Sequence record: MH383160
Source of the DNA: Escherichia phage UB
Reading direction: 5' to 3' (one strand)
DNA length: 64,000 nt
The notes below the pieces were generated by a model. That model was not told where the DNA came from and made no database searches. It saw nothing but the letters and a program-made list of their open reading frames with translations. Below are positions 12,332 through 50,195 of this stretch, one piece after another. Position numbers and translations under genes: made by a program. Within the stretch, counting starts at the first letter, position 1, and each line of letters begins with the position of its first letter.

Positions 12332-12960
12332 TAATCACAACTTCCAGACGATGAACTTGAATCAGAACTAGAGCTATCATAGGAACAAGAATCAGAGGAA
12401 GAACTGCTGTGACGGCTATAATCACTGTAATCATCATTGTTGTAGATTGGTGATGTTACGATTGCTGCTGCGGTCGCTGCCGTTGCAATTTGTGCAGTAT
12501 GGTCATGAACATCTAGTTTTGGTTCATCCTTAGATTTACCTTTGTTCTTACCTTTAGTGTAACGAGCTTTCTTTGCAGTTTTAGTATTTTTCTGTACTTT
12601 AGGAGCTTTTGGTTTCACATCTTCAACTACTGGAACTACATTCACTACAACTTTAGGATCAGTTTCTTCAAGTGTATTATACACTTTAACTTGCATTTGA
12701 ACTTCAACTTCTTTAACTTCTTCTTTAACTTCTGGAATAACTGTTTCTGGTGCTGGAGTGATTTTATCAAGTTCTTTAGTAATAAAGAAGCTTGTATTTT
12801 TCTCACCTAGCATAACAAGAAGACCAATGGCAATCACTGGACTTAGTACTGTACCAAGTACTACATAACCTAGAACACTTCTGTTATAGTTATATGCAAG
12901 CATACCAGAAATAATAATACCGATTACATATGCACTGCTAAGAATAATTGGGGTTAACAT
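12331..12960 (-). CDS. membrane protein with Lys-rich linker and Ser-rich C-terminal tail
   Basis: Two N-terminal TM helices, Lys-rich segment (KAPKVQKNTKTAKKARYTKGKNKGKSK), C-terminal low-complexity SSSSSDSCSYDSSSSDSSSSSGSCD. Confidence 0.5.
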   Translation of the reverse strand: MLTPIILSSAYVIGIIISGMLAYNYNRSVLGYVVLGTVLSPVIAIGLLVMLGEKNTSFFITKELDKITPAPETVIPEVKEEVKEVEVQMQVKVYNTLEETDPKVVVNVVPVVEDVKPKAPKVQKNTKTAKKARYTKGKNKGKSKDEPKLDVHDHTAQIATAATAAAIVTSPIYNNDDYSDYSRHSSSSSDSCSYDSSSSDSSSSSGSCD

Positions 12961-13264
12961 ATTCTACTCCTTTGTATATAAATTTACTAACTTCTTCGAT
13001 GTATAAAGACAACCCTGAACGTTCATTTAGAACTAACCAAGCACCAAAACCACATCGAATCTCGGATATACGAAACTCTTCTACACTATAAATTGAATAC
13101 GCGTTAAATGGACATATTTCATCAGATATACTTACCACATAGTTATTATTAATTGAATCTAACACCTGGGTATTGTATAAATTATTAGTACTGAAAATCT
13201 GCATTAACGAGCTAGAAAGCATCTCGGTTGTCTTTTCTAATATTGTTAAAAACGAACCATTCAC
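12938..13264 (-). CDS. hypothetical small protein
   Basis: 108 aa ORF. Confidence 0.4.
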   Translation of the reverse strand: MNGSFLTILEKTTEMLSSSLMQIFSTNNLYNTQVLDSINNNYVVSISDEICPFNAYSIYSVEEFRISEIRCGFGAWLVLNERSGLSLYIEEVSKFIYKGVEYVNPNYS

Positions 13265-13321
13265 TTCAACTTCTCCCTATTGGTGATGTAATCAAATTAT
13301 ATCACCGAATTCTGATACGTC

Positions 13322-13627
13322 TCATGATATTCGCATTTCATCTATATATAATGAACATGATTCAGAATTATCGTCTAAACTTAAACCTAAATCGACCATC
13401 AAACCGCAATGCGTTCCCCAGAATTTCTTTATGTATAGTTTTTTGCTACTATTACCTAAATCATAAACATATTCATTTTTAAATATACTTTTTAATTCTT
13501 CACATATACATTTTATTATCTTCATTACTTGATTATGATATTCGTATGGTATTCCATCAAGTTCGTTAATTATTAATGCAAAACCATTATCATAGTACTT
13601 AAGTTTATTGAATGTTTGTATATCCAT
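13322..13627 (-). CDS. hypothetical small protein
   Basis: 101 aa ORF. Confidence 0.4.
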   Translation of the reverse strand: MDIQTFNKLKYYDNGFALIINELDGIPYEYHNQVMKIIKCICEELKSIFKNEYVYDLGNSSKKLYIKKFWGTHCGLMVDLGLSLDDNSESCSLYIDEMRIS

Positions 13628-13924
13628 TTAATATATAATCTCACTAGCTTCTATTGTGTAGACACCATCATCAGTCATTAATCTTACTGCAACTTTAATA
13701 TTACTAGACATTCGTGTAACTATCAATCCAATAATTATACCATTCTTTAAAGTACCATTATGGTATCTAACTTTTACTTCAGTTTTATTATCAATTAAGT
13801 ATCTTCTAATTATGTGTATTTCATTTCTGAATAATTCTAAAAAAGCTTCACTATTTTCTTTATCTGACCCGTCTGAACACCAGTACAATAAATTTACTTG
13901 TTCAAATAATTTTTTTATATTCAT
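13628..13924 (-). CDS. hypothetical small protein
   Basis: 98 aa ORF. Confidence 0.4.
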   Translation of the reverse strand: MNIKKLFEQVNLLYWCSDGSDKENSEAFLELFRNEIHIIRRYLIDNKTEVKVRYHNGTLKNGIIIGLIVTRMSSNIKVAVRLMTDDGVYTIEASEIIY

Positions 13925-14280
13925 AAAAATCTCACAGATTTAATATTACTGGTTACATGATTTACCCAAGTGTTATCGAACTTGTAAACAATTGTATTAA
14001 GTGATTTATGAAAATTAACCTCGCACACTAAAGCCTTGGAACCATTGATTGTACAGACCGTGGATGGTAAGTTGTTTGCTAATATCTCTTTTTCATCTAA
14101 ACATAGTGAACTAATACAATCATAATAGAGAGGTTCAAGAACTTTTTCAGTACTGAGAAATTCAAAAGAAAGATCATCTATTAGTTTTATGTAATCGAAT
14201 AAATTATGATAATATTCATTCATTGTAGATCCTTTTAAATTTAGCATTATTAGAATATGTATATGAATGACCAAAATCAT
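13921..14280 (-). CDS. hypothetical small protein
   Basis: 119 aa ORF; start uncertain. Confidence 0.4.
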   Translation of the reverse strand: MILVIHIHILIMLNLKGSTMNEYYHNLFDYIKLIDDLSFEFLSTEKVLEPLYYDCISSLCLDEKEILANNLPSTVCTINGSKALVCEVNFHKSLNTIVYKFDNTWVNHVTSNIKSVRFL

Positions 14281-14467
14281 TTACACCATGTACATTTAGT
14301 ACACCGTCACTGAAATAAATTCGATCAATAGTGAGTTCACGTTTATAATCCCAATCATCATACCAGCACAGAACACGAATGCCTTTGTACTTTGTAGTTA
14401 AATCATTTTCTAATATAGTCAAGTAATCAATATGACTTTTGAATATCTCTAAGTCCTGCTCAAACAT
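14216..14467 (-). CDS. hypothetical small protein (K-Y-x-G family)
   Basis: 83 aa; LTTKYKGIRVL motif. Confidence 0.4.
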   Translation of the reverse strand: MFEQDLEIFKSHIDYLTILENDLTTKYKGIRVLCWYDDWDYKRELTIDRIYFSDGVLNVHGVNDFGHSYTYSNNAKFKRIYNE

Positions 14468-19384: not shown

Positions 19385-19687
19385 TTATCCTCTTAATTTA
19401 ATAGTACTGGCTGGATATTCTACAAAAGTATTATCTGGTAATCCTATACAGTAATAAGGTAAATACCCCATCTTTATATTAATACCAATTAAAATTCCTG
19501 TTTTATATGAAGTATTAATTCCATAGTAATCGTCTATATCAACAGCAAGTCCATATAATGATATGTTACAATCCTTGATGTATCGGTCAAACATTTTATA
19601 CATTGATGGATATAAAGTTCCATTGGATTGTCTCACCAAATCAGCCAACATTTTGATAGTACTGTTAATTAAATCTATACTGAACAT
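19385..19687 (-). CDS. hypothetical small protein
   Basis: 100 aa ORF. Confidence 0.45.
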   Translation of the reverse strand: MFSIDLINSTIKMLADLVRQSNGTLYPSMYKMFDRYIKDCNISLYGLAVDIDDYYGINTSYKTGILIGINIKMGYLPYYCIGLPDNTFVEYPASTIKLRG

Positions 19688-19700
19688 CTTTGTACCTGCG

Positions 19701-19726
19701 AAAAAAGACCAGCAAACGCTGGTCTA
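19701..19726 (-). terminator. rho-independent terminator
   Basis: AGACCAGC-AAAC-GCTGGTCT perfect 8-bp stem; A6 run on plus strand immediately 5' (T-run after hairpin on minus strand); just downstream of 19732..20013. Confidence 0.6.
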
Positions 19727-20023: not shown

Positions 20024-20761
20024 TTAGAAATATATCATACCCATCAATTCAGAATCGGCGGGGCGAGTGTAACCTTGCTTCTTAACTTTAAAATAGAATG
20101 ATTCATGCTCTTCTAAATTATAACGTTTTTTCAAGCAACGAGTGTATGTCTGACAATTTGGGTGAACCCATTCATAAATGTGAATGCCATTTTCGTCATA
20201 ACCATTTATACTACAACGATTTCCTTCATGCTTCATGAAGTTTTTACTTTTTTCAGTAAATTCTTTCACTGTAGTTGTATATGGAGATTTGTATTCAAAA
20301 GGAACTTCAGTCATACGAAAATAATAGTATTCTTCGTCTTCATCATATCCCAAGAGCACTGTGTTAGTTTCACGTACATTGTAATGATTCTTACTTTTTA
20401 ATTCATTTTCGTATATATCTTTCAGTACTTCTGCAAAAACTTCCTCGCTTGATGCATTAGGATTAGATACACCTGATACTCGGCGTTCAATAATAAAATC
20501 AGTGAATTTACGGTCTTCGGCAATATCTTCGTTCATATAAAGACTAACAAACTTATCCTTATATGTCTTTACACTATATTGCTTACTTTGCACTTCACTA
20601 TAAACATCTGCTAACATATTCTCCTGACCACACTGCACACCACTTACAGAATAAGCACATGCATGTTCAGCCATTACTGATGTTAACATTTGGAAATTTG
20701 CCATGTTTAATTCATTCGCCATCTCTGTAGCGAAACGGATACGGTCAAGCATTTCACACAC
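20024..20761 (-). CDS. hypothetical protein
   Basis: 245 aa ORF. Confidence 0.5.
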   Translation of the reverse strand: MCEMLDRIRFATEMANELNMANFQMLTSVMAEHACAYSVSGVQCGQENMLADVYSEVQSKQYSVKTYKDKFVSLYMNEDIAEDRKFTDFIIERRVSGVSNPNASSEEVFAEVLKDIYENELKSKNHYNVRETNTVLLGYDEDEEYYYFRMTEVPFEYKSPYTTTVKEFTEKSKNFMKHEGNRCSINGYDENGIHIYEWVHPNCQTYTRCLKKRYNLEEHESFYFKVKKQGYTRPADSELMGMIYF

Positions 20762-20810
20762 TCCTTGTGTTAATTATTGTTCCTTACCCATTATTATATC
20801 ATGAATTAAA

Positions 20811-21107
20811 CTATTGTCCCTGTTTATAGCAATAAAGATTCTCTAATTTAAAGTCCACTAGGTCACATTCAGAACGTACTCGATTCTTGTTCCAGAATAA
20901 AATACGAATCCTTTCATAATCACGATAAACACTAATAATGCTTCGGTGCTTGGATTTGTAGTACTCCTGTACTATCCCCAGATACACAGTCCTCAATAAA
21001 GACTTAGTTGGATAGGGCATATTCTGTGCTGACGTGATATTGTAAATCATCTTCATTGTTTCAGCAATAAGTACTTCATTTGTTCTCATTGTAATCCTTA
21101 CATACAC
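20811..21107 (-). CDS. hypothetical small protein
   Basis: 98 aa ORF. Confidence 0.4.
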   Translation of the reverse strand: MYVRITMRTNEVLIAETMKMIYNITSAQNMPYPTKSLLRTVYLGIVQEYYKSKHRSIISVYRDYERIRILFWNKNRVRSECDLVDFKLENLYCYKQGQ

Positions 21108-21248
21108 TATGCAAAGTAAACCCTAAACCAACACCGACAAATGGAAATAGTAAATTGATATACCAAGTATTAATTGATGAAAGGAAACAAATCCCACATA
21201 CTGTCAGTACTGCCAATGAAAAAAGACTCCAGATAAAAAATACTGTTC

Positions 21249-21539
21249 TCATAAAAATATTACCTCATCAAATGAAAAGTTTAAGTACGTTGTTGAATCT
21301 TGGTCTAAACTATGAATAGTAATATGACCATTGAAATAAAAAGAAACATCAACTATTTGAAGTTTTGGGTATTTTCTAGTACTGAAATATCTACCCACTA
21401 ACACAGCATATATATAATCCCTGTACTCTTGAGTAATGAATTCATACATATTATGATTTGCACTGCACTTTTCATCATAAGTATTAGTATATTCTTTCAT
21501 CAGTAGAGCATATGTTTTTTGTATTAATATGATATTCAT
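21249..21539 (-). CDS. hypothetical small protein
   Basis: 96 aa ORF. Confidence 0.4.
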   Translation of the reverse strand: MNIILIQKTYALLMKEYTNTYDEKCSANHNMYEFITQEYRDYIYAVLVGRYFSTRKYPKLQIVDVSFYFNGHITIHSLDQDSTTYLNFSFDEVIFL

Positions 21540-21799
21540 AAATCACCTAATACCTCAAAAATTACTGATATTGGGTATAATGGGTTACCAGTTGAAGTAA
21601 TACATACAATTAGTACGTTTTTTCCTGGTCCCACATCCGTTATAGTGAAATTAATATTATTAATATTCAGTGATTTACCAATATAATGCTCTTTCAATAA
21701 TTCAACAAAATAATCCAGTACTGGATTATCTGCACTATATGATAACTCAGTACTTGATATCATTTTATATGTATGAACTATTAGTTCAGCTTTAGTCAT
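21536..21799 (-). CDS. hypothetical small protein (K-Y-x-G-like)
   Basis: Track ORF 21536..21922 trimmed to internal Met (MTKAEL...) to avoid overlap with upstream gene; contains KEHYIGKSL. Confidence 0.35.
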   Translation of the reverse strand: MTKAELIVHTYKMISSTELSYSADNPVLDYFVELLKEHYIGKSLNINNINFTITDVGPGKNVLIVCITSTGNPLYPISVIFEVLGDL

Positions 21800-21992
21800 G
21801 AACACGCTCACAATTAAGGCAATAAATGCACTCAATGTCAGGTCGCCATGATTTATCAAAATCTTTGTGCTGTTCTTCGGTGTATTCTGCATCATCATTA
21901 ATAGGGAAGAAATCACCAGCACCAGTCGCCCAGTCTGAATCTAAACGGAAACGAGCTAATTGAGTACTGTTACAATATGGACATTTATTCAA
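21792..21992 (-). CDS. small zinc-ribbon protein
   Basis: 66 aa with CPYC near N-terminus and CIYCLNC near C-terminus. Confidence 0.45.
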   Translation of the reverse strand: MNKCPYCNSTQLARFRLDSDWATGAGDFFPINDDAEYTEEQHKDFDKSWRPDIECIYCLNCERVHD

Positions 21993-22269
21993 AATTTATT
22001 CCTTCTAACTGATATACGTTTAATGAAAATGACCCACTATTATTATCGCATCTGAAACACAGTGTTAAAGAACCATTAAAACTAACTACATCCGTACAGA
22101 TACATTTTTCACCATTGGATATGATAGATTTTCCTATATATAAATCTCTTACTATAGTACGGTAATGTTGCCATAAAAAATAATACACACTTTCATAGTA
22201 CTCATCTTTTACATATGATAAGTATAAGAATTTATAAAATACTTGTATTTCCTTTAAGTTGTTTTTCAT
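21985..22269 (-). CDS. tandem paralogue family C member
   Basis: 94 aa; N-terminal LKEIQVFYKFLYLSY resembles neighbours. Confidence 0.45.
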   Translation of the reverse strand: MKNNLKEIQVFYKFLYLSYVKDEYYESVYYFLWQHYRTIVRDLYIGKSIISNGEKCICTDVVSFNGSLTLCFRCDNNSGSFSLNVYQLEGINFE

Positions 22270-22543
22270 TCTTCAATTCCAGTAAATTTACACCAATCCA
22301 ATCAACATCACTATCAGTACTTAATTCCAATCGTAGCTTACCGCTATGACTAACAATATCGCGGAATTTGTATATTTTATTATCACGAACTATACACAAA
22401 TCATGGTAATAATCATGTAATTCATCCAAAAACTTTATCCATACCGAACGATAGATTTCACTGTAGAGATATTCTCCAGCATCAACCGTAGCGTATTGGA
22501 TATACAAAAATTTGTATGTGAATTGTATATCATTTAATAACAT
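22232..22543 (-). CDS. tandem paralogue family C member
   Basis: 103 aa; MLLNDIQFTYKFLYIQY N-terminus. Confidence 0.5.
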   Translation of the reverse strand: MLLNDIQFTYKFLYIQYATVDAGEYLYSEIYRSVWIKFLDELHDYYHDLCIVRDNKIYKFRDIVSHSGKLRLELSTDSDVDWIGVNLLELKNEKQLKGNTSIL

Positions 22544-22553
22544 ATGTAACCTC

Positions 22554-22865
22554 TTATAAATTCACCAACTTCACAACTTTAATCTCGATAAATCCCCTAT
22601 CGGTTATTTCCTGAAATTGAACATGGATTATACCATTATATGATTGCACACCATAGAAATCGAATTTATCATTTCCATCGATAAAAGTACTGTAATTCTT
22701 TTTTATATATTCACCTACTGAATCTAAGTACTCAATATATAAATCAATAAATGGTTGTTCTTTGTATCGGTTATGTGAACCTATGTTGTTACTAACAAGG
22801 TATACATCATACAAATCATATAGGATCTTATAAGTGAATTGTATATCATTTAAATTTAATCCCAA
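22554..22865 (-). CDS. tandem paralogue family C member
   Basis: 103 aa; LNLNDIQFTYKILYDLYD N-terminus. Confidence 0.5.
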   Translation of the reverse strand: MGLNLNDIQFTYKILYDLYDVYLVSNNIGSHNRYKEQPFIDLYIEYLDSVGEYIKKNYSTFIDGNDKFDFYGVQSYNGIIHVQFQEITDRGFIEIKVVKLVNL

Positions 22866-23122
22866 GGGAATATCTCCAACGGAATACTGGTAAATCCAAA
22901 ATCAGTGTAGTACTGAACCTCAACTTTACCATCACGTCTAATGATTATATCAGAAAATTCTGCATGGTCATCACCAATAATAACAGTACTGAATTTTTTT
23001 TTAATCTTACCACGAATCGTATGAATCATTTCAGTGCCTGTGTCTTCTAGACTAGGGCTATCATTGTCGTGTGCTAAATCTCGAATAATCTTGTATGTTA
23101 GTAGGAAATCTTTATAATTCAT
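22856..23122 (-). CDS. tandem paralogue family C member
   Basis: 88 aa; MNYKDFLLTYKIIRDLAHD N-terminus. Confidence 0.5.
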   Translation of the reverse strand: MNYKDFLLTYKIIRDLAHDNDSPSLEDTGTEMIHTIRGKIKKKFSTVIIGDDHAEFSDIIIRRDGKVEVQYYTDFGFTSIPLEIFPWD

Positions 23123-23394
23123 ATGTCCACCAAATCTATACTATATCTTTCATTAGTATTACTATCTATAAATGATAGTACTAATTTACCACCAAAACTA
23201 TTAACTTGTTCTATCTTCTGTTTTTTACCACGAATGATTATCTCACTATTAACAAAATATTCACGTATCATTATTAAGTGATTAATCCAGATAGTATGAG
23301 TGAATGTGTTTTCTCGTATTGTATTGAGATATCTTCCATTGTGATGTAAATCAAACAAAACACTGTATGTATATTGTAGAACTTTATAATTCAT
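23119..23394 (-). CDS. tandem paralogue family C member
   Basis: 91 aa; MNYKVLQYTYSVLFDLHH N-terminus. Confidence 0.5.
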   Translation of the reverse strand: MNYKVLQYTYSVLFDLHHNGRYLNTIRENTFTHTIWINHLIMIREYFVNSEIIIRGKKQKIEQVNSFGGKLVLSFIDSNTNERYSIDLVDI

Positions 23395-23404
23395 ATATCC
23401 CCTT

Positions 23405-23433
23405 ACAAAAATAGCCCGAACTTATGTCGGGCT
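23405..23433 (-). terminator. rho-independent terminator
   Basis: AGCCCGA-ACTTATG-TCGGGCT 7-bp stem; A-rich run 5' on plus strand (T-rich after the hairpin on minus strand); downstream of 23441..24127. Confidence 0.55.
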
Positions 23434-23440
23434 ATGTACA

Positions 23441-24127
23441 TTATTCATCGTCGTCATCGTCATCTAGATCGATATAGATACTATCATCACCATCATCAAA
23501 GTACTCCACAATAACTCCTGGAATATTAAGAGCAGTAAACATTGCATCATATTTCTCATCAGATGGAATCAAAACAAATTCATCAATGTTTTGGACTTCT
23601 GGCATTTTATCTTCGGGGATACCCATATCAACAAGTGACTGAATAATCTTTTCTTTGAATTCTAAAAACTTCTCTTCAGATTCAAAATCCATAATAAGCT
23701 GTGCAACATATCCTTCATCGTTACCGAATGAAATTGACATTTGTGCATCAGTACCGACATAGCACCAAACACGTTTGCCTGTGTGTTGCTCAATAAAGTT
23801 TTGAATCTGTAACACAATGTCATGGCGAGAACTGTTAGCAATGTTGTTAAGATTTTCTACACCAGCATTAATTCCAGTACTGTCATTTGTTTCTTCAAAT
23901 TCACCATAATCACCCAATACATACTGTACACCTTCATGATGTAATGCATATGCATAGTCAAGGTCAGCGAGTGAATCGCACTTTCCACGGATCGGACGTA
24001 GGGAAAGACCTAAGCGAAGATAACGGAAGTATGTATTAGTATTTGTATTTGTCAACGTAATGCTCCTTAACAATATAAAAGTAGTTGCTGTTATTGTCAA
24101 AAAAGATAACCATCCCTTTATAGACAT
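23441..24127 (-). CDS. hypothetical acidic protein (start uncertain)
   Basis: 228 aa track ORF; C-terminal poly-Asp (DDDDDDE); N-terminal part overlaps a short TATTTG-type repeat and may be untranslated. Confidence 0.45.
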   Translation of the reverse strand: MSIKGWLSFLTITATTFILLRSITLTNTNTNTYFRYLRLGLSLRPIRGKCDSLADLDYAYALHHEGVQYVLGDYGEFEETNDSTGINAGVENLNNIANSSRHDIVLQIQNFIEQHTGKRVWCYVGTDAQMSISFGNDEGYVAQLIMDFESEEKFLEFKEKIIQSLVDMGIPEDKMPEVQNIDEFVLIPSDEKYDAMFTALNIPGVIVEYFDDGDDSIYIDLDDDDDDE

Positions 24128-24611: not shown

Positions 24612-25145
24612 TTATTTCCTCATGTATTTTATAACGTCTTCAAATAATTGTATTTTTAAGTCCTCGTCATTTCCAGGTAAAAACTCACGAAAACTATCAA
24701 AATCTTCATTTTTTGCGAAGTTACGCATTTGTGTTGAGCTATATTGACTTGATTGGCGGTCAATACCTGCTTGAATTGCTTTTATATTACAAAAATTATA
24801 CAACTTCCCATTGTAACTGTCAAGTGTTTTCTGAAAAGAATCAATACGGTCTGAACCACATATAAAAAATACATCTAAATATTTTCCATCTAATTCACGC
24901 ATTATATCAAAAAGATTATCTTCAGTATAAATGTTTTCTTGAACCGAAGGATAGAAACCCTCAGTGTAATACATCTTTAATTCAGGAGGAAGCGGGTTTT
25001 TTATATTATCAGTACTGGTGCTTAGATATATTTTCAAATCTGCATTGTACTGTTCTTGTAATGTTTTGGCCTTTTCAAAAACTAAACCATGACCATTGTG
25101 GACTGGGTTACATCTCATAAATGATAATATACATGTTTCTTTCAT
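24612..25145 (-). CDS. HxGH-motif nucleotidyltransferase (NMN/NaMN adenylyltransferase-like)
   Basis: N-terminal SFMRCNPVHNGH fits the (H/T)xGH signature of the nucleotidyltransferase alpha/beta phosphodiesterase superfamily; SSTQMR near C-terminus resembles the ISSTxxR motif. Confidence 0.55.
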   Translation of the reverse strand: MKETCILSFMRCNPVHNGHGLVFEKAKTLQEQYNADLKIYLSTSTDNIKNPLPPELKMYYTEGFYPSVQENIYTEDNLFDIMRELDGKYLDVFFICGSDRIDSFQKTLDSYNGKLYNFCNIKAIQAGIDRQSSQYSSTQMRNFAKNEDFDSFREFLPGNDEDLKIQLFEDVIKYMRK

Positions 25146-38897: not shown

Positions 38898-39436
38898 AAT
38901 TCAACCCCCAATATTTTATCAGCAATTGATATAACCTTATCATTGAATACATTACCAATCTCAATCCTTATATACATAGCAGGTGGAATCTTTCCTTGTA
39001 GTGAATAATATGTTTGTATACCTAAGTACTCATTATCTGATAATGAAAATTTGATTCTCTCCATATCAATGTCTGTTACTGGTAAATCAATCATTTCATA
39101 ATGGTAGTCAACGTTTTCAGTGTATATTTTATCGAAGTAATTTGAATAATCACTACTAATATAGATGCTATCATCACGAATAATCACTTTATAATCAGAA
39201 GGTTCAAATTTATCTTTAGAAGAAAAGAATGCATCATCTATCTTCTCTTCTCTTATACCGAATAACATTTTACCATCATATTTTACATCAAGAATACTAC
39301 CTAGTATATTAATGGTACAATGCTCATCAATATTATGACGTAAAGAACGAGTCTTGTATTTTGGGTTAATGAAAATTTTCATTAATTTTATACAAATGTC
39401 AGTAATGCATTTTACATTCTCATTTTCTATGTACAT
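38894..39436 (-). CDS. hypothetical protein (array)
   Basis: 180 aa ORF; motif not evident. Confidence 0.5.
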   Translation of the reverse strand: MYIENENVKCITDICIKLMKIFINPKYKTRSLRHNIDEHCTINILGSILDVKYDGKMLFGIREEKIDDAFFSSKDKFEPSDYKVIIRDDSIYISSDYSNYFDKIYTENVDYHYEMIDLPVTDIDMERIKFSLSDNEYLGIQTYYSLQGKIPPAMYIRIEIGNVFNDKVISIADKILGVEL

Positions 39437-39914
39437 TAAAAGCCCTCTTTAATTCTTTTACATTTTTAATGAATACTTTCATTGCAGAAATCTCAAAAGA
39501 TAATGTATTAAATTTGCAGTACTTTTTAAAGTACGACATTATGAATAACATTTTGAGTTCTTTTTCTGTGTAAATTAAACTATTTTGAAAGTAACTTTCT
39601 TCTGATAAATCATCAAGAAACGGATATAAAACTCCATTTGTTCTCAAGAACATGATACCTTCACTCCATGATCTAAATGAAAGGTAATCAGTCTTACCAC
39701 ATTCATATAAGGAGTTTATCATTCCATCAATCATTAAGGAGAACTCAATACTGTATCCTAATCTTTCACACTTGTATCTCTTATCTTCTTTCTTTGTAAT
39801 TACGAAGTGATGACCCAGTGAGTCTTTGTTATCGAAAATGAAATCAACTGTCTCTAAACACTCCTTAGCGAACTTCATAGTTTCTCTGTACTTTCGGTTC
39901 ATTAGTCTCTCCAA
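39420..39914 (-). CDS. family A protein
   Basis: 164 aa; EESYFQNSLIY. Confidence 0.55.
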   Translation of the reverse strand: MERLMNRKYRETMKFAKECLETVDFIFDNKDSLGHHFVITKKEDKRYKCERLGYSIEFSLMIDGMINSLYECGKTDYLSFRSWSEGIMFLRTNGVLYPFLDDLSEESYFQNSLIYTEKELKMLFIMSYFKKYCKFNTLSFEISAMKVFIKNVKELKRAFNVHRK

Positions 39915-40315
39915 ACTTTACCAGGGAAGTGTTTCTCGTAGTACTCATCATCACTTAACATATAATCAGGAGTTTCTACTTCTATGGTTTTGAAGATTGT
40001 TTCTGGAATGTGTGTGACTTTATTGGGTTGTACTTTATGTTCGCGTAAAACCTTCTGTATCGCTCCTAGACGTTGTAAATCGATACATGTAGGAAAGACT
40101 AAGCTGTACTGAAATAGCTCGTCGGGGGTCATTATAGACACATCCTTAGCTTGTTTGATTTTATTGTTGGCATCAATGAATATATCAAATCCTTGTACAG
40201 CATTATAGCTTACATAGGTTGTTTTATTTTTGTCAATAGGAGCACTTAAACGATATCCATATACCCCGTGTTGGTCAACAATGCATCGTTGCATAATTTT
40301 AATCATTTCGAACAT
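39902..40315 (-). CDS. family A protein
   Basis: 137 aa; DELFQYSLVF. Confidence 0.55.
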   Translation of the reverse strand: MFEMIKIMQRCIVDQHGVYGYRLSAPIDKNKTTYVSYNAVQGFDIFIDANNKIKQAKDVSIMTPDELFQYSLVFPTCIDLQRLGAIQKVLREHKVQPNKVTHIPETIFKTIEVETPDYMLSDDEYYEKHFPGKVWRD

Positions 40316-40661
40316 AATTTACCTCGTATGTGTTATAATTCCACGCTTTAACACTATCCATTTGTATATCCTGAACTTCATGGAAATATTTAAGTACCTT
40401 CTGGTATTCCATTATTTCATATACATCTTCAGTATTGACAGTGCTCTCCTGAAACAATTCCTCTTCTGATAAAGTACTATAATCCGGGATTTTTATTTCA
40501 GAATATATCTCATTCATATATGAATCATTTTGGTAAATCTGTAGATAAAACTGATTATATTCAGGGATATAGGTTACGAAATGGTTCTTGTTGAATTCAT
40601 ATCTTGAAGCAAAGCATTCATTGCCATCCGTCATGTACTGAATTGTTTTCTTATTTTGCAT
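40299..40661 (-). CDS. family A protein
   Basis: 120 aa; EEELFQESTV. Confidence 0.55.
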   Translation of the reverse strand: MQNKKTIQYMTDGNECFASRYEFNKNHFVTYIPEYNQFYLQIYQNDSYMNEIYSEIKIPDYSTLSEEELFQESTVNTEDVYEIMEYQKVLKYFHEVQDIQMDSVKAWNYNTYEVNYVRND

Positions 40662-41121
40662 TCAAATAATCCACGCATTTATAGTAGACTGCTAAATCTA
40701 AAAAGAATCGTTGATTGTATTTGTAATGATTAAGTAGTGCACCATAAAATAACATAGCATTAAGTACTTTTACATCATGAATACAAGAACCCTGAAAGTA
40801 CATTTCCTCTGACATGAAGACTAAATCATTATACGGAACAAATACTGCTTCTCTAAATGTATCAATATTAATCTTCAAATCAGACCCAGGGCAATATGAA
40901 ATGTATTCGGCTTTGTAATGAAAGTCATTATCATCAAAGTACTCCGCGTAGATTTGATTACCTCTACCATTAGTAAATGCTAGTCTTCCTTTAGATGAAC
41001 TGAACTCATCGTATTGAAACATACCACCAAAAGGCTTAGGACTTCTGAACTCCTTTGCAATGCGATAGATATTTTCTGTAAATTCTAAAACACCATAGTA
41101 ATCATATTCTGTAGTAATCAT
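40651..41121 (-). CDS. family A protein
   Basis: 156 aa; EEMYFQGSCIH. Confidence 0.55.
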   Translation of the reverse strand: MITTEYDYYGVLEFTENIYRIAKEFRSPKPFGGMFQYDEFSSSKGRLAFTNGRGNQIYAEYFDDNDFHYKAEYISYCPGSDLKINIDTFREAVFVPYNDLVFMSEEMYFQGSCIHDVKVLNAMLFYGALLNHYKYNQRFFLDLAVYYKCVDYLNAK

Positions 41122-41594
41122 AAACCATTTTTCTCCAGGTACTCAATAATACAATCGACATTGTTCAGGTCCAAGTAGAAATGATCACTATCGGAATTTA
41201 GTTCATTTTTAAGGGCTGTTAAAATCACTGAACTGAAAACAATCCTCTCTGGATACACAGTACTGTACTGGAAGAACTCTTCTTCAGTGTTAATTACAAT
41301 CGTATTAAATGCTTCATTTATAAGAAGATGATTGTAGTATTTGAAATTATCTGAACTTGGAAAATGGTATGAAATAAAATCACCACTTGGTACTTCATCA
41401 AGTACTCTAATGCTACAAGTTGATTCATCTGAACTATAGAGTAACCCATCCATAAAGGAAAGGTATCCATTTCGTTTAATAACTTTATGTTCCCCCACGG
41501 AAAAATCTTCAGTAACATTCGCAAGGAATTTATAAACCCTGATAATGTCTTTTGCTATTTTTTGTGCATTGCTAAATGATAGGTCTTTGGACAT
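41118..41594 (-). CDS. family A protein
   Basis: 158 aa; EEEFFQYSTVY. Confidence 0.55.
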   Translation of the reverse strand: MSKDLSFSNAQKIAKDIIRVYKFLANVTEDFSVGEHKVIKRNGYLSFMDGLLYSSDESTCSIRVLDEVPSGDFISYHFPSSDNFKYYNHLLINEAFNTIVINTEEEFFQYSTVYPERIVFSSVILTALKNELNSDSDHFYLDLNNVDCIIEYLEKNGL

Positions 41595-41653
41595 TGTGAT
41601 ATAACCCTTTACAATTAATATAAAGAGATTATATCACAAAGAATCGGAGGGTG

Positions 41654-42238
41654 TCAAGATGGGTTGCGAAGTTCTACCATTTCTTTCCAAACTAATTGGT
41701 AATCTTCTAAGTCCAGATAGAAGTCTTCATTCCAGTGCTCATGAAAGTACTTATACATGAATAGAACTCCTAAATCGTATGCAGGAAACAATAATGATAG
41801 TTGAAAGTAGTATTCCTGATTTAAAACTATATCAATGAACTCTAATGTACGTATGCCACCTTTCGATGAACGTATCTCAATGTGTGAGGTATCCTTTATA
41901 CTGTAACACATGAAACCGCCTCTGAATTCTGGATCATATTCACATTCGAACTGCTCACTGTTGTTATAGAAATCTCTCCCACTTTCTTTATCTTTCGGTC
42001 TACGTACTGATACATGAATATTGTTATCACGGTACATTGAACGATTTAGTATTTTCAAACATTTGAACTTATTTTCTTTAATGAACTTGATAATATCAAT
42101 TATATCTTGTGCAGTACTGATAGCTGATTCGAATGTATCCAACTTAAGATGATTATATTGTGTTCCATTGTTCATTTTTTCATCTAACATATAAACCTCA
42201 TAATTCATACATTTTTGATTTGAACTGCATATGACCAC
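41654..42238 (-). CDS. family A protein
   Basis: 194 aa; QEYYFQLSLLF. Confidence 0.55.
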   Translation of the reverse strand: MVICSSNQKCMNYEVYMLDEKMNNGTQYNHLKLDTFESAISTAQDIIDIIKFIKENKFKCLKILNRSMYRDNNIHVSVRRPKDKESGRDFYNNSEQFECEYDPEFRGGFMCYSIKDTSHIEIRSSKGGIRTLEFIDIVLNQEYYFQLSLLFPAYDLGVLFMYKYFHEHWNEDFYLDLEDYQLVWKEMVELRNPS

Positions 42239-42533
42239 CTATTTCACATGGATAACAATTCATAATTTTGTTCAATAAAATCTGGTATTTTTTAATAACT
42301 TCTATATCAATTTTTATATTACTATTAAAAACTAATGATTCTTGAAATAATTCACCCTCGTCAAGTGAAGTAAAATCATTTATCTTCAACGGTATATTGT
42401 TGCATCGCAAGGAGAATGTATTTTCATCACGAATTAAAGTATAGAAATCATTATGTTTTTTATTATAATCAAATTTCACAAGTAGTAGTTTAATATGAGT
42501 AGCGTACATTACTTTCACTAATTCAGTCTTCAT
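42198..42533 (-). CDS. family A protein
   Basis: 111 aa; EGELFQESLVF. Confidence 0.55.
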   Translation of the reverse strand: MKTELVKVMYATHIKLLLVKFDYNKKHNDFYTLIRDENTFSLRCNNIPLKINDFTSLDEGELFQESLVFNSNIKIDIEVIKKYQILLNKIMNCYPCEIGGHMQFKSKMYEL

Positions 42534-42885
42534 AACGGAATAAAATTCTCCTGTACTGCTCCGGTCCAGTACTCAATCTCTTCACTGGATAATTATCAAA
42601 GATTCTTTTCATTTCTTTCTGGATTAAACATAAGAAATCAAAGTTACAATCGTACTTATTATCCCATACTAAACTTTCTTGGAATAACTCATCCTCTTGC
42701 ATTAGTGTAGTGTCAATTACATCTTCACGAACATAGCTATATACTTCATAGCTCTTGAAGCCATCTTCTGATAATTCTAATTCATATGCCGCCATATCAA
42801 ACATATCATCATGGTTTGTCTTCAATGATATTAAACAAGTAACTAATTTTTTAGTTGTATAGTATGTAATACTTAATGTGTTCAT
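42523..42885 (-). CDS. family A protein
   Basis: 120 aa; EDELFQESLVW. Confidence 0.55.
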   Translation of the reverse strand: MNTLSITYYTTKKLVTCLISLKTNHDDMFDMAAYELELSEDGFKSYEVYSYVREDVIDTTLMQEDELFQESLVWDNKYDCNFDFLCLIQKEMKRIFDNYPVKRLSTGPEQYRRILFRYED

Positions 42886-42890
42886 TTGTT

Positions 42891-43493
42891 TTATACCTCA
42901 GTATAAAGCTTACAATAGCTTTCATCAAAATCACAAACACTTCTCAAGTACTGACACAGGTCAGTAAAAATATTTACATTTGCTATATATACATTATCAA
43001 ATTCTACTCGTTGAAAGAATGTATGCATAGAATTTGTAATATATCTCATTGCAGATTCACGTTCCATCGTTAAATCATTTGTGAACATTGCATCTTCATC
43101 AGTACTGACTAATTCAATATCAAATGATTGCATATATGGAATACTCTTTCCTAGGGCATAACTATCACCATATGATGCTTCTACTGCACCTTTAGAATAC
43201 ACCAATTGATATAAGTCCGAAATAGGGTTATAAAACGTGCGGCAAATTGAGGAACATAATTTATTATTCATCCAATAGAAAACCCTATTTGAATTACCGT
43301 CAAATGCTATACGCAATCCATCACCATCTAGAGTAATAATCCCATCCAGCATAAAAGAGAACTGAACTAATGCTTTTTCTAAGTCCATTCTTTTGTGATA
43401 AATGATTTCTTGCATATAGATAATATCATTTACTAATTTCTTAAAAAACAAATGCACATCTGCACTACAACATTTATTTGCATTTATTGGCAT
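42891..43493 (-). CDS. hypothetical protein (array, degenerate motif)
   Basis: 200 aa; DEDAMFTNDL. Confidence 0.5.
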   Translation of the reverse strand: MPINANKCCSADVHLFFKKLVNDIIYMQEIIYHKRMDLEKALVQFSFMLDGIITLDGDGLRIAFDGNSNRVFYWMNNKLCSSICRTFYNPISDLYQLVYSKGAVEASYGDSYALGKSIPYMQSFDIELVSTDEDAMFTNDLTMERESAMRYITNSMHTFFQRVEFDNVYIANVNIFTDLCQYLRSVCDFDESYCKLYTEV

Positions 43494-44044
43494 AATAGTT
43501 CCTTATACATATTATGTACTTTACAAATCTCATTATAGTATTTCATATCAATATCATTTGTATTAAAAACGGAAACAGACAATACCGCTAAATCATCAAT
43601 GAAGTAATTATTATCGGCGTACTCTTTTAACTTATTGAACATATAGATGCATTTTATACTTAATTCATCATGCAACACACTGTTCTGAAAAATATTCTCT
43701 TCAGTATTAGGAGATAAGTAATCTTCAATTATATACGATAAACTACTATCGCAATCTTTATAGATTGAAATTGATGGATGTAATGTGTCATACATTACAC
43801 TAAACAGATCACCGTCATATGTGGATATTAAACTATTATTGGAAACAGTAGGATGATAATATTTCAGTACTGAAAACTTTGAACAATCAGTGCAGTAAAA
43901 ATGATCCATCCCTCGACGACTTTCGTATGAGAATAGTTTACTTGTATATTCAATCCCTTTGGTGCGACGGATTGTTTCATGCATTTCTGCACATTGCATT
44001 AAAATTACCATACGTTCAAACGCAAGATCTAAATCATCGTACAT
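43484..44044 (-). CDS. family A protein
   Basis: 186 aa; EENIFQNSVLH. Confidence 0.55.
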   Translation of the reverse strand: MYDDLDLAFERMVILMQCAEMHETIRRTKGIEYTSKLFSYESRRGMDHFYCTDCSKFSVLKYYHPTVSNNSLISTYDGDLFSVMYDTLHPSISIYKDCDSSLSYIIEDYLSPNTEENIFQNSVLHDELSIKCIYMFNKLKEYADNNYFIDDLAVLSVSVFNTNDIDMKYYNEICKVHNMYKELLCQ

Positions 44045-44225
44045 AACGGATATCCTTCTTCAACGAATTAATATATTCCAAAATAACTTGTTCCTGATAT
44101 TGAGTTCCCAAGTACATCAGGACTTTCAACTCTTTGAATTCAGTACTATATGAGTCTGTTTGCATCATTCTAGTAGAATATATATTGAATAGTTTAGCAA
44201 TGTCATTTTGGTCTATTATTTTCAT
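44034..44225 (-). CDS. family B small protein (outlier copy)
   Basis: 63 aa; LMYLGTQYQEQV. Confidence 0.45.
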   Translation of the reverse strand: MKIIDQNDIAKLFNIYSTRMMQTDSYSTEFKELKVLMYLGTQYQEQVILEYINSLKKDIRYVR

Positions 44226-44421
44226 ATATTCTCTTCTGGATTAGTTCCTGTAAGTGCTGAATATAACCCTTCATTGCAACATCCTGTTTGTTAGAGCCAA
44301 CGAAGAACAAGAGCTTAAAGTCATGGTAATCCATTTTTGGTTTAGTAGTGAACCATATGTCCCACACTGCACTCACAGTTCTCATGTATTCAATTCGATT
44401 AAATGTTTTTGAATACTTCAT
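44203..44421 (-). CDS. family B-like small protein (outlier copy)
   Basis: 72 aa; FFVGSNKQDVAMKGY. Confidence 0.4.
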   Translation of the reverse strand: MKYSKTFNRIEYMRTVSAVWDIWFTTKPKMDYHDFKLLFFVGSNKQDVAMKGYIQHLQELIQKRIYENNRPK

Positions 44422-44935
44422 CGATGTTCATCGCCAATAAGTTAATATACAAATTACTGTTAAATGCTATCTGCAATTCCATATAGAACTGAATGATAGC
44501 ATAGTCAGGGTCAGTACACGATAGTTGAAAGCACTGTTCTTCAAATGAATTGTAATTGTACTTAGGGATGTGAATTTCACGCTTCAAATCAGGTTGACCC
44601 CACTTCATCGCGTACACACCAATGTTATTGTTCTTTTTCCTTTTCTTAAATGTTAATTGTTGAATATTTCCTGCGTCATCCAGGAAAATAGTATTATTCG
44701 ACACAGGTGCACCAATAGAAAACAATGATGTATCAATTACGTGTGTCGCACGCACCTCACACTTCTGGAATGCCCCAGTACCCTGTAATACATAATGAAA
44801 ATTGTACTTCTCATTAACAACAGTACTAGGATCGATTAAACCAGTACTGCATTTTTTGAGTACTGGTACAATGGTGCGAATCTTTTTTGATAAATCTTGT
44901 AATGCATCAAAGTCATTGATGTTAACTTTCATCAC
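44399..44935 (-). CDS. family A protein
   Basis: 178 aa; EEQCFQLSCT. Confidence 0.55.
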   Translation of the reverse strand: MMKVNINDFDALQDLSKKIRTIVPVLKKCSTGLIDPSTVVNEKYNFHYVLQGTGAFQKCEVRATHVIDTSLFSIGAPVSNNTIFLDDAGNIQQLTFKKRKKNNNIGVYAMKWGQPDLKREIHIPKYNYNSFEEQCFQLSCTDPDYAIIQFYMELQIAFNSNLYINLLAMNIDEVFKNI

Positions 44936-45381
44936 TCGAATGTAGCCTCTTCAGTAGTAACAAAATTGGTTAGTGTATCCAGTTCAGCAGTGTCAAGATA
45001 AAATACATCTAGTACAGATTTCTGATATATTACACTGAATGTGCATAGATTGTCAAGTGTTCCTTGTTCATAAACAGTACTACCCTGGAAGTACCCTTCT
45101 TCAGTACTCAGGGATAAAATATCTGAAATTTTAAAAGATTCTTCAGTTGCATGTCTTTCTATATTAACTATATTGCCGTTTCGGTTCAATGAAATATAAT
45201 CGTATGCTAACTCAATTAGACTATAATTATCCGCATTAGTGTCAAATAAAGCGACAATTTTTCGTCTCAATCTCTCATCGTGATCATGGTTTTCATCAGC
45301 TAAGTATTCAGGATTTTCTTTGAAGAATTTAACGACGCGTAGAATATCATTTGCTTTCTTGATTGCACTTTCGTAACTCAT
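44932..45381 (-). CDS. family A protein
   Basis: 149 aa; EEGYFQGSTVY. Confidence 0.55.
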   Translation of the reverse strand: MSYESAIKKANDILRVVKFFKENPEYLADENHDHDERLRRKIVALFDTNADNYSLIELAYDYISLNRNGNIVNIERHATEESFKISDILSLSTEEGYFQGSTVYEQGTLDNLCTFSVIYQKSVLDVFYLDTAELDTLTNFVTTEEATFE

Positions 45382-45686
45382 AATAATTCAACCACTCCAT
45401 CTCTAAAGTACATATAACTACCACCATTGGATACTGTGAATTCTATTGTCCCCAATAATATATTATATTTTTTTATTTCACATGTAGTACTTGTAGTGTA
45501 AGGCTCACCATCTCCTAAGTACATTGACATATGACATAGAACTTTTCTACCAGCATATTTCTCTTCAAACGATTGTTCAAAACTATGCATAATTTGATTT
45601 AAAGCTGAAATGTAATTAATAAAGTCAGGTATTTCTGTCAATGAATTATAAACCGTACAAAGTGAATCAAATTCATTTTTAGTCAT
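45378..45686 (-). CDS. hypothetical small protein (K-Y-x-G family)
   Basis: 102 aa; EEKYAGRKVLC. Confidence 0.45.
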   Translation of the reverse strand: MTKNEFDSLCTVYNSLTEIPDFINYISALNQIMHSFEQSFEEKYAGRKVLCHMSMYLGDGEPYTTSTTCEIKKYNILLGTIEFTVSNGGSYMYFRDGVVELL

Positions 45687-46000
45687 TATATTTCTATCTC
45701 AATGTAATCCTGTGTGATTAAATAATCCCAATGATACTTCACCTGCTTTTGTAATTCAATTAACGTAAAGAAGTTGATCGATTTATCCCATACGAGCGAT
45801 TCCTGGAAAATAAATGATTCATGTTCATCGTAATAATCACACTCTAAAAAATCAGGTATATATTCACTATCGTGAATGTATTCAACAAACGAACTAGCTT
45901 GGCATTTCTTTACTACTAGTAATAATGAATTATCATGATCAAACAGATACAATAAACTAATTTCACCAGGGACGTACTGAACACTGAATAAGTTTTTCAT
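45686..46000 (-). CDS. family A protein
   Basis: 104 aa; ESFIFQESLVW. Confidence 0.55.
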   Translation of the reverse strand: MKNLFSVQYVPGEISLLYLFDHDNSLLLVVKKCQASSFVEYIHDSEYIPDFLECDYYDEHESFIFQESLVWDKSINFFTLIELQKQVKYHWDYLITQDYIEIEI

Positions 46001-47825: not shown

Positions 47826-47826
47826 T

Positions 47827-48318: not shown

Positions 48319-48327
48319 TTTATAATC

Positions 48328-50041: not shown

Positions 50042-50195
50042 TGGTGTACTGTGAACTCAGCACCACTAATAGGTAATCTATATTGTAAGCACGATTTCCT
50101 CGTTGACTAGCACGGCTGGAATAAAGAATATTATCCACATATGTATTGAACTGATCTTCAAATAACTCTTTCATCAGCATTATCCCATCACATAA

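Follow-up and report, generated by a model that had tools for sequence, protein, structure and literature searches.

A tandem family of small, fast-evolving proteins at a variable locus of Asteriusvirus jumbo coliphages

Organization of the array locus

The 64,000-nucleotide stretch of DNA analysed here (the window) belongs to a jumbo coliphage, an Asteriusvirus of the 121Q/PBECO4/G17 type: it is 99.3% identical to phage JP4 and 96-99% identical to 121Q, PBECO4 and G17. It contains an array of small genes whose neighbours encode Dam methylase, the RNA ligase RnlA and the polynucleotide kinase PseT; every gene at this locus lies on the minus strand (Table 1). A sequence-only reading had described five tandem paralogous ORFs here (P1 to P5), and we found all five exactly where it had placed them, with the N-termini that it had quoted among MLLNDIQFTYKFLYIQY, LNLNDIQFTYKILYDLYD, MNYKDFLLTYKIIRDLAHD, MNYKVLQYTYSVLFDL and NLKEIQVFYKFLYLSY. 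In phage G17, the same five coding sequences have been annotated as encoding hypothetical proteins, and the phAPEC6 annotation lacks P1. Even larger paralogue arrays are also present in the window.

Table 1. Features of the array locus, listed in the direction of transcription
Feature	Position	Strand	Description
Intrinsic terminator hairpin	23411-23435	-	ATAGCCCGAC-ATAAG-TTCGGGCTAT, then TTTTTG; 9 bp stem
P5	23119-23394	-	91 aa; first gene of the array; phrog_32291
P4	22856-23122	-	88 aa; phrog_35943; most divergent among the contiguous five
P3	22554-22865	-	103 aa; TTG start, GGAG site 9 nt upstream; phrog_21004
P2	22232-22543	-	103 aa; phrog_21004; protein modelled with AlphaFold2
P1	21985-22269	-	94 aa; last of the contiguous five
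Zinc-ribbon protein (not a family member)	21792-21992	-	66 aa; CxxC...CxxC; TTG start
Probable seventh member	21536-21799	-	87 aa; phrog_33961; N-terminus ELIVHTYKMI; HYIGKS motif as in P1
Sixth member	21249-21539	-	96 aa; phrog_28826; N-terminus MNIILIQKTYALLMKEY
Next strong minus-strand terminator downstream of the array	19706-19725	-	AGACCAGC-GTTT-GCTGGTCT, then TTTTTT

The array genes abut or overlap, and are thus probably co-transcribed; each has its own ribosome-binding site. The start of P4 overlaps the stop of P5 (ATGA), and P1 shares its first 38 nt with the C-terminal tail of P2, a segment modelled with low confidence. For P3, the TTG start and its GGAG site are kept in G17, Ecwhy_1, WPEC5 and ph0011, and use of this start restores the N-terminal family motif. 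The encoded proteins (87-103 aa, pI 4.8-8.0, without hydrophobic segments) are small, soluble and mostly mildly acidic.

Transcription signals flanking the array

The sequence-only reading had also proposed that a hairpin terminator closes the array. The hairpin at 23411-23435 is indeed a terminator: TTTTT adjoins the stem on the minus strand, the G17 annotation records it as such, and both stem and T-run are kept in the Asteriusvirus lineages Ecwhy_1, ph0011, A4, JNE01 and Turkey5. On the coding strand, however, it lies 5' of the array and 3' of the gene for an acidic protein (23441-24055/24127). Since the array is read from 23394 downwards, the hairpin terminates this preceding gene rather than the array. 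Only about 16 nt separate the hairpin from the first start codon of the array, and they include an AAGGGG ribosome-binding site, leaving no room for a sigma-70 promoter. We assume that the array would be transcribed through read-through of the upstream terminator, a route that would make the array less strongly expressed than the upstream gene. The terminator at 19706-19725 is likely the 3' end of the transcription unit that includes the array. Our literature search found no Asteriusvirus transcriptome.

The array proteins are homologous over their whole length

We compared the five ORFs with all 259 ORFs of the window by blastp and found that they are linked in a chain, from P1 to P2 (E 2e-6) and to P5 (E 3e-5), from P2 to P3 (E 5e-5) and from P3 to P4 (E 4e-4). 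Smith-Waterman z scores for the linked pairs ranged from 9.1 to 12.4 (500 shuffles), with the lowest value belonging to the link between P4 and P3. We also built leave-one-out profiles, in which one orthologue group was omitted and the left-out paralogue was scored against 1000 shuffles of itself. All five paralogues beat every shuffle: four scored 46-54 bits, and P4 reached 13.2 bits, the best of its shuffles 9.3.

The similarity was not limited to the short N-terminal stretch. With the N-terminal ~20 residues removed, 6 of the 10 pairs remained similar, with no more than 6 of 1000 shuffles equalling the observed score (z 4.1-12.3), and C-terminal-only leave-one-out profiles recovered four paralogues with E values of 1e-7 to 2e-11. 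P4 was not recovered by such a profile (E 0.1); its sole C-terminal link among the five is to P3 (z 7.1). Together, these results demonstrate that the five ORFs derive from one gene as genuine, diverged copies, with homology along the full protein and P4 as the weakest case.

The family extends beyond these five ORFs. The ORF at 21249-21539 matched a profile of the five sequences (E 0.0015), scored 19.7 bits (shuffle maximum 11.0), and entered an iterative profile search at iteration 2 without bringing in decoy ORFs; it is clearly a family member. The case for 21536-21799 is weaker. This ORF scored 14.5 bits (shuffle maximum 9.9), with size-matched neighbouring ORFs scoring 1.0-6.4 bits in the same test; it matched C-terminal-only profiles at E 3e-4 to 7e-3 and gave an hhalign P of 3.4e-4, compared with 0.25-0.77 in controls. 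It entered the profile after RaK2 sequences had been added. In addition, it has a YIGKS motif in common with P1 and the family's predicted order of two helices followed by four strands, and we conclude that it is probably a member. Both iterative searches with the extended family converged without plus-strand decoys. The tandem family of the sequence-only reading therefore stands, but its count of five rises to seven members in the window.

We left out 20811-21107, for which the scores were only marginal (E 0.03-0.66; hhalign P 0.017). Weak iterative-profile matches were also seen at 12938-13264, 13628-13924, 14216-14467 and 19385-19687 (E 0.01-0.06).

In the PHROG collection, family proteins found full-length matches (E 1e-43 to 1e-63) to phrog_21004, phrog_32291, phrog_35943, phrog_28826 and phrog_33961, all of them labelled 'unknown function'. 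The window proteins were thus already catalogued there, but as separate families without a function. Our analysis unites at least five PHROGs, together with RaK2 ORF456, ORF471 and ORF478, in one family with one predicted fold.

A predicted two-helix hairpin on a small beta-sheet

AlphaFold2 modelled P2 with a pLDDT of 85.4 and a pTM of 0.73, as two helices (residues 3-19 and 25-45) followed by four strands (50-53, 56-66, 69-75 and 82-86). In the fold predicted for the family, a hairpin of two helices packs onto a small beta-sheet of four to five strands. The high-confidence model is that of P2 only; the model of 21536-21799 has the same order of elements at low confidence (pLDDT 68), and BFVD matches to other members have TM scores of 0.64-0.70. 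A 96-aa protein of phage slurp01 is a further BFVD fold match (TM 0.69/0.73), its orthology to 21249-21539 being inferred from length only.

In the predicted structure, the N-terminal motif is helix 1 and the best-conserved element of the fold. Column entropy is lowest there (1.94 bits), and gaps concentrate in the loop between helices 1 and 2, which is longer in P3, in the loop between strands 3 and 4, and in the C-terminal tail. Across the family, only one glycine, in a beta-turn, is invariant and one tyrosine is nearly so; the alignment contains no conserved polar residue.

These features bear on the possibility that the family consists of degenerate or minimal PD-(D/E)XK nuclease domains akin to type II restriction enzymes. 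P4 matches the PADLOC family REase_II (E 1.2e-4) and Pfam DUF4928 (E 0.012) over nearly its whole length, 21536-21799 weakly matches Pfam DpnI (E 0.02), and the alpha-then-beta-meander order loosely fits the PD-(D/E)XK fold. However, the REase_II and DUF4928 matches occur in 1 of 27 family members, every score falls below the curated cut-offs, and the family conserves neither a D...(D/E)xK motif nor any other acidic or basic residue. Because the orthologues of P4 have no such match, we take the REase_II match as chance, and we consider a nuclease origin barely credible. More generally, Pfam, NCBI and defence-library families gave no reproducible match to the family.

The tandem genes of T4 that encode the internal head proteins IPI, IPII and IPIII are polymorphic and specify a conserved N-terminal stretch of ~15 residues. 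The present family likewise forms a tandem array, has a well-kept N-terminal stretch and is polymorphic between phages, and one might suppose that its members are packaged in the same way, with the N-terminus acting as a capsid-targeting signal that is removed by the prohead protease and the variable bodies being injected to act against host defences. Both a T4-like prohead protease and an inner body of unreported composition occur in Asteriusviruses (PMC7247149). Several observations argue against such a role. Homology among the array proteins persists along the C-terminal two thirds; instead of a detachable leader, the motif forms helix 1 of a compact fold predicted with confidence; and the protease site is not conserved, a site of the L/I-x-E type following the motif in P1 only (LKE). 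Furthermore, gp386c-gp389c of phAPEC6, the orthologues of P2 through P5, are not among the 62 proteins identified in its virion by ESI-MS/MS (PMC7247149), although small, low-abundance proteins can escape detection. We therefore regard packaging as very improbable.

An embedded zinc-ribbon gene and a possible link to transcription

The zinc-ribbon gene within the array (21792-21992) differs from the family that surrounds it: it is very strongly conserved (dN/dS 0-0.05), its product is 71% identical to RaK2 ORF454, and it shows no similarity to the family proteins (hhalign P 0.77). We found this gene in Asteriusvirus and Alcyoneusvirus records only, the two genera that also carry the family, and it lies within the array in every examined lineage with the family (Asteriusvirus, metagenomic contigs and RaK2).

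Foldseek found no significant match to the P2 model in the PDB (best E 0.17). The weak matches (query-normalised TM 0.26-0.38 over about 45 residues) were nearly all small beta-barrels: the PcrA/UvrD Tudor domain, Mfd, the KOW-like domains of eIF5A/EF-P, the WYL domains of PafBC, BrxR and CapW, and Rof. The C-terminal ~45 residues of the family are predicted to form a short, strongly bent antiparallel sheet, which may resemble such barrels (SH3, Tudor, KOW, Sm or WYL-like). Taken with the zinc-ribbon gene and its constant position, these matches could indicate that the proteins modulate transcription or RNA metabolism, with the C-terminal barrel docking on RNA polymerase, Rho or RNA, perhaps together with the zinc-ribbon protein, whose K64-1 counterpart is labelled 'transcription factor IIS-like protein' in RefSeq. 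Yet all the fold matches are non-significant (E at least 0.17), and a small beta-barrel is a generic fold for binding. Pfam holds no match to the zinc-ribbon protein, whose joint occurrence with the family in two sister genera counts as just one evolutionary event. In addition, seven fast-diverging copies are ill-suited to one conserved target such as RNA polymerase. On balance, we consider this role unlikely.

Distribution, copy number and turnover

The family is narrowly distributed. Only 19 matches were found among 1.84 billion representative proteins, and tblastn detected the family in 35 of 50,697 phage records, all of them Asteriusvirus. RaK2 gave weak profile matches and one fold match at the syntenic site. 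The family is thus detectable in Asteriusvirus and Alcyoneusvirus (RaK2) only. In GAP32 and 7t3, unrelated genes occupy the slot between the acidic protein and a 245-aa protein. Searches of IMG/VR with single distant family proteins, and a tblastn search of GenBank phages with P0047, found nothing.

Copy number, which the sequence-only reading had proposed to check among related phages, does vary, from 4 to 7 per locus. The contiguous block has five copies in 121Q-like phages and A4 and three in JNE01 and Turkey5, in which the overall arrangement is 3+1; metagenomic relatives have a 1+5 arrangement. Individual copies also differ sharply in how well they are kept. Relative to Ecwhy_1, P1 is 100% and P2 96% identical at the amino acid level, and the other three are 64%, 74% and 60% identical. 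In WPEC5, P1 is 100% and P2 64% identical; in A4, the corresponding values are 96% and 42%, and the remaining three copies are in every case closest to P5. These patterns of identity indicate that single paralogues have been swapped or replaced between phages. We rejected a fusion ORF in the Salmonella phage SD-6_S16 as evidence of unequal crossing-over: its junctions are not at homologous positions, and this, together with deletions in many flanking genes, makes it a possible assembly artefact.

Values of dN/dS were 0.17-0.70 for family members and 0.01-0.14 for flanking genes, and were below 1 in every comparison. The array genes are under purifying selection and evolve several times faster than their flanks. 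With dN/dS below 1 throughout, the cause of this fast evolution could be relaxed constraint on dispensable genes instead of an arms race.

Such relaxation would fit a reading in which the array is ballast, that is, translated genes of weak or redundant function that drift and are tolerated by a 350-kb genome. In keeping with this, dN/dS is raised, copies have been lost in JNE01 and Turkey5, and G+C is lower in the array than in the window (29% versus 32.5%); the larger arrays in the same window suggest, moreover, that duplication is a general habit of this genome. What ballast does not readily explain is that reading frames, ribosome-binding sites and fold-defining residues have been kept despite near-saturated synonymous sites (dS up to about 1.6), and that the position of the array is common to two genera. 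With dN/dS never reaching 1, we give this reading a real but minor chance of being correct.

Discussion

A sequence profile search of the PDB returned AcrVA1 only (E 0.81), the family matched no characterised anti-defence inhibitor in that search, with all BFVD matches being to uncharacterised proteins, and a literature search found no description of the family.

Our preferred explanation, to which we assign a probability of roughly 45%, is that the array consists of old tandem duplications encoding non-enzymatic binders that act against host factors or defences. The sequence comparisons show that the array arose by old gene duplications. The proteins would be non-virion binding modules made during infection from a locus in what may be the accessory, host-takeover part of the genome. 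Each paralogue would present different surface loops on the same scaffold, and hence recognize a different partner, most plausibly a host protein or defence component; an arms race between host and phage would then have left its trace in duplication, divergence and recombinational exchange. A more specific version, in which a constant core displays hypervariable loops and tails, each paralogue neutralises a different host protein (immune or housekeeping), swaps of single paralogues between co-infecting phages tune the host range and the zinc-ribbon protein is a possible common partner, is speculative and rather doubtful. If true, it would define a new multi-target anti-defence family specific to RaK2-like jumbo phages.

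The array resembles the accessory regions of T4-like and jumbo phages, which likewise contain small, overlapping ORFs on one strand next to Dam, RnlA and PseT, and show variable copy number or content at a fixed slot, mosaic exchange of single genes and a narrow range. Unlike these parallels, the present family has no Pfam model and is spread over at least five PHROGs. A comparable expansion, of about 35 zinc ribbon copies in Bacillus phage G, was reported in a survey of jumbo phages (PMC7824862). Tandem, fast-evolving families of small genes are thus expected in large phage genomes, and our finding is real but ordinary, without a new principle.

Jumbo phages of the 121Q, PBECO4 and phAPEC6 type are under development against pathogenic E. 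coli, and 83% of the predicted gene products of phAPEC6 are without known function, according to its authors. Our analysis brings seven 'hypothetical proteins' of each genome, and at least five PHROGs, together in a single family with one confidently predicted fold, and corrects the start codon of one member. It also identifies the locus as a gene-turnover hot spot in phages that are otherwise nearly identical, and hence as a reasonable candidate for determinants of host range or anti-defence activity.

Organization of the array

The stretch at 21000-25000 matches Escherichia phage JP4 at 99.3% identity and 121Q, PBECO4, G17, phAPEC6 and further members of Asteriusvirus, jumbo myoviruses with genomes of about 350 kb, at 96-99%; G+C content is 29% in the array, compared with 32.5% in the window. 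Because nearly all long window ORFs lie on the minus strand, we take the reading direction to run from high to low coordinates. The sequence-only reading had placed five small paralogous genes with a shared N-terminal motif, (L/Y)-x-(F/Y)-T-Y-K-(F/I)-L-(Y/F)-D-L, at 21985-23394. We found that five consecutive minus-strand ORFs, termed P5 to P1 in reading order, exactly fill this interval, and that all the N-terminal strings quoted occur in them; G17 carries the same five coding sequences, annotated as hypothetical proteins. From P5 to P1 the junctions are an ATGA, a 10-nt overlap, a 10-nt gap and a 38-nt overlap, and each gene has a plausible ribosome-binding site. After P1 come a zinc-ribbon gene and members of 87 and then 96 aa. 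The neighbourhood, which includes genes for Dam methylase, a cytidylyltransferase-like protein, RNA ligase RnlA and PseT, resembles the accessory, counter-defence regions of T4.

P3 begins at a TTG that has GGAG 9 nt upstream. Four other phages keep this start, which brings back the family motif lost in annotations that use a later ATG. Several GenBank orthologues of P3 (including those of PBECO4, Ecwhy_1, L009 4570-4881, and WPEC5, L008 4567-4878) start at this internal ATG, giving 83-86 aa and dropping the conserved N-terminal helix; the true start is likely the conserved TTG. The phAPEC6 annotation omits both P1 and the zinc-ribbon gene.

Array genes and larger paralogue families in the window
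Feature	Coordinates	Strand	Length and remarks
P5	23119-23394	-	91 aa
P4	22856-23122	-	88 aa
P3	22554-22865	-	103 aa, TTG start
P2	22232-22543	-	103 aa
P1	21985-22269	-	94 aa
Zinc-ribbon gene, non-member	21792-21992	-	66 aa, TTG start
Member beyond zinc-ribbon gene	21536-21799	-	87 aa; weaker case
Member beyond zinc-ribbon gene	21249-21539	-	96 aa
22-ORF family	44034-63965, densest 59721-63965	-	mostly 63-96 aa
10-ORF family	40299-59487	-	106-161 aa
8-ORF family	39420-48318	-	147-164 aa

The five genes are paralogues, and the family has seven members

Comparisons by blastp, Smith-Waterman and profiles link the five, in agreement with the proposed tandem family. Against all 259 window ORFs, blastp linked P1-P2 (E 2e-6), P1-P5 (3e-5), P2-P3 (5e-5) and P3-P4 (4e-4) over 70-100 residues, and phmmer agreed. 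Linked pairs scored 9-12 standard deviations above 500 shuffles in Smith-Waterman alignments, versus z of about 2 or less for size-matched neighbouring ORFs. Nor is the similarity confined to the N-terminal stretch: with about 20 N-terminal residues removed, 6 of 10 pairs gave scores that no more than 6 of 1000 shuffles could reach (z 4.1-12.3), and leave-one-out profiles of the C-terminal parts alone recovered P1, P2, P3 and P5 (E 1e-7 to 2e-11). P4 stands furthest apart. Only P3 provides a link to its C-terminal part (z 7.1), and in the full-length leave-one-out comparison it scored 13.2 bits, with 9.3 bits as the highest value among 1000 shuffles. Pairwise identity is merely 11-27%, and the duplications are therefore old.

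All five are related, as claimed, but five is an undercount. The 96-aa ORF was matched by the five-sequence profile (E 0.0015; 19.7 bits versus a shuffle maximum of 11.0) and was taken in by an iterative search with related-phage sequences that converged with zero plus-strand decoy ORFs. The 87-aa ORF probably belongs as well, on weaker but consistent evidence: it gave an hhalign P of 3.4e-4 versus 0.25-0.77 for controls and 14.5 bits versus a shuffle maximum of 9.9, ranked within the top three non-member matches for 4 of 5 C-terminal-only profiles (E 3e-4 to 7e-3), and joined the profile once RaK2 sequences were added. Its HYIGKS matches LYIGKS of P1, and its low-confidence AlphaFold2 model (pLDDT 68) has the same order of two helices and four strands. 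A further candidate, 20811-21107, was excluded, as its scores were marginal.

Downstream of RnlA and PseT, several other small minus-strand ORFs (12938-14467, 19385-19687), about 85-110 aa long, also matched the family profile weakly (E 0.01-0.06). In the jumbo phage RaK2 (L015 11010-14700), ORF469, ORF471-474, ORF478 and ORF479 give weak matches at E 2e-5 to 4e-2. There are hints here that the accessory region holds a larger, more diffuse superfamily of ~90-aa proteins.

The zinc-ribbon protein (CxxC...CxxC) is almost invariant inside this fast-evolving array (dN/dS 0-0.05; 71% identity to RaK2 ORF454). Its occurrence is limited to Asteriusvirus and Alcyoneusvirus, the same two genera with a detectable paralogue family; it has no Pfam match, and the RefSeq record of K64-1 names it 'transcription factor IIS-like protein'.

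A conserved hairpin opens the array

The hairpin thought to close the array instead opens it, since this minus-strand stem-loop with a T-run (23411-23435) lies 3' of the stop codon of the upstream acidic-protein gene and before P5. The G17 annotation lists it as a terminator, and all Asteriusvirus lineages examined keep it. Between it and the first ATG of the array there is a ribosome-binding site alone, leaving too little room for a sigma-70-like promoter; going downstream, no other strong minus-strand terminator comes before the one at 19706-19725. We infer that the array would be transcribed by read-through of the hairpin, which would attenuate its expression.

A near-consensus sigma-70-like promoter of its own (24100-24072, 11/12) and a conserved terminator make the acidic-protein gene (minus strand, 23441-24055 by its annotated start, to 24127 as the longest ORF) appear to be a single-gene unit with strong expression. 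Its very acidic product (pI 4.1, net charge about -28), with a C-terminus of poly-Asp/Glu, is kept in all RaK2-like genomes examined (Asteriusvirus, RaK2, K64-1) and might act as a DNA mimic or similar protein. A 12/12 sigma-70 consensus (TTGACA, 17-nt spacer, TATAAT) at 24823-24795 (-), inside the cytidylyltransferase-like gene (24612-25145), is oriented toward the downstream small genes.

Distribution and turnover

HMMER, run exhaustively on 1.84 billion representative proteins, gave 19 matches, all of 52-105 aa (most 85-105 aa) save one repetitive false positive, and a word-indexed scan of 5.8 billion proteins gave 33. By tblastn the family occurs in 35 of 50,697 phage records, every one Asteriusvirus. 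The flanking 245-aa protein (20024-20761) is kept across the wider RaK2-like clade, and gene content between it and the acidic protein varies: RaK2 has the zinc-ribbon gene with ORF453, ORF455 and ORF456, which weakly match the family profile, and GAP32 and 7t3 have entirely different, unrelated genes. Across RaK2-like jumbo phages, this slot (window 20024-24127; L015 in RaK2, L016 in GAP32, L017 in 7t3) is a region of plasticity; RaK2 and GAP32 have in common a 205-aa gene predicted to be phosphohydrolase-like.

As the sequence-only reading had proposed to check, copy number differs among related phages. By profile it is 5+1 in the window, G17, Ecwhy_1, WPEC5, ph0011 and A4, 3+1 in JNE01 and Turkey5, and 1+5+1 in two metagenomic contigs (L012, L014), where the zinc-ribbon gene follows the first member rather than the fifth. 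Orthology is not one-to-one: relative to the window, A4 shows 96% identity in P1 and 42% in P2, its other three copies being most like P5. Compared with the window in the same way, Ecwhy_1 shows 100%, 96%, 64%, 74% and 60% from P1 to P5, and WPEC5 shows 100% in P1 and 64% in P2. These abrupt shifts at gene borders indicate recombinational exchange of single paralogues. With dN/dS of 0.17-0.70, versus 0.01-0.14 for flanking genes, the members are real coding genes under purifying selection, with weaker constraint. That they are ballast, persisting under relaxed constraint, we consider rather unlikely.

Salmonella SD-series Asteriusvirus genomes (L002, L003, L005; 310-326 kb versus ~350 kb) carry in-frame deletions within the array. 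In SD-6_S16 (L002 2070-2360) one ORF fuses the N-terminus of the P4 orthologue to pieces of the P3 orthologue; the junctions fall at non-homologous positions and flanking genes are truncated too. The deletions could be assembly artefacts or mark a genuinely deletion-prone lineage.

Larger families, grouped by blastp clustering at E <1e-4, have 22, 10 and 8 members, all within 39420-63965 (-). Such arrays are expected in jumbo phages; the finding is real, correctly recognised and ordinary. GenBank and PHROGs already list the member sequences as hypothetical proteins, and the papers searched contained no description of the family. What is new is the joining of at least five PHROGs and of RaK2 ORFs in a single family with one predicted fold, confident for P2, together with the array's correct extent, the hairpin's correct role and the turnover pattern.

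Predicted structure and function

An AlphaFold2 model of P2, built on a 33-sequence alignment (pLDDT 85.4, pTM 0.73), predicts helices at 3-19 and 25-45, strands at 50-53, 56-66, 69-75 and 82-86, a short helix and a low-confidence tail. The N-terminal motif corresponds to helix 1, the most conserved element (mean column entropy 1.94 bits); indels cluster between helices 1 and 2, in the strand 3-strand 4 loop and in the tail. An enzymatic role is disfavoured because the family alignment contains one invariant Gly, one nearly invariant Tyr and no conserved polar residue. P4 matched PADLOC REase_II (E 1.2e-4), a match we attribute to chance, as it is missing from every other member, P4 orthologues included, and lacks a conserved catalytic motif; degenerate nucleases are hardly credible. 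Foldseek gave a best E of 0.17 against PDB, nearly every weak match being a small beta-barrel (Tudor, KOW, WYL or Sm type). Each BFVD match was an uncharacterised protein, either another one from Asteriusvirus or, for one of 89 aa (TM 0.61/0.69), from RaK2. A role as transcription or RNA modulators, possibly partnering the zinc-ribbon protein, seems improbable.

Pfam and PADLOC assigned no member to a functional family, every PHROGs match is of 'unknown function', and PDB sequences gave no functional lead. A likeness to T4 internal proteins is otherwise attractive; here, however, homology spans the full length and no protease site is conserved. Moreover, mass spectrometry of phAPEC6 virions identified 62 proteins (PMC7247149), and gp386c-gp389c, orthologous to P2 through P5, were not found in that set; we regard T4-type internal proteins as very improbable. 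From the solubility of the proteins (pI 4.8-8.0), the failure to detect P2 to P5 orthologues in the phAPEC6 virion, the neighbourhood and the lack of functional homology, our preferred reading, with a probability of roughly 40-45%, is that the family may comprise non-enzymatic binding modules that act on host factors or defences and have been diversified by duplication and exchange.
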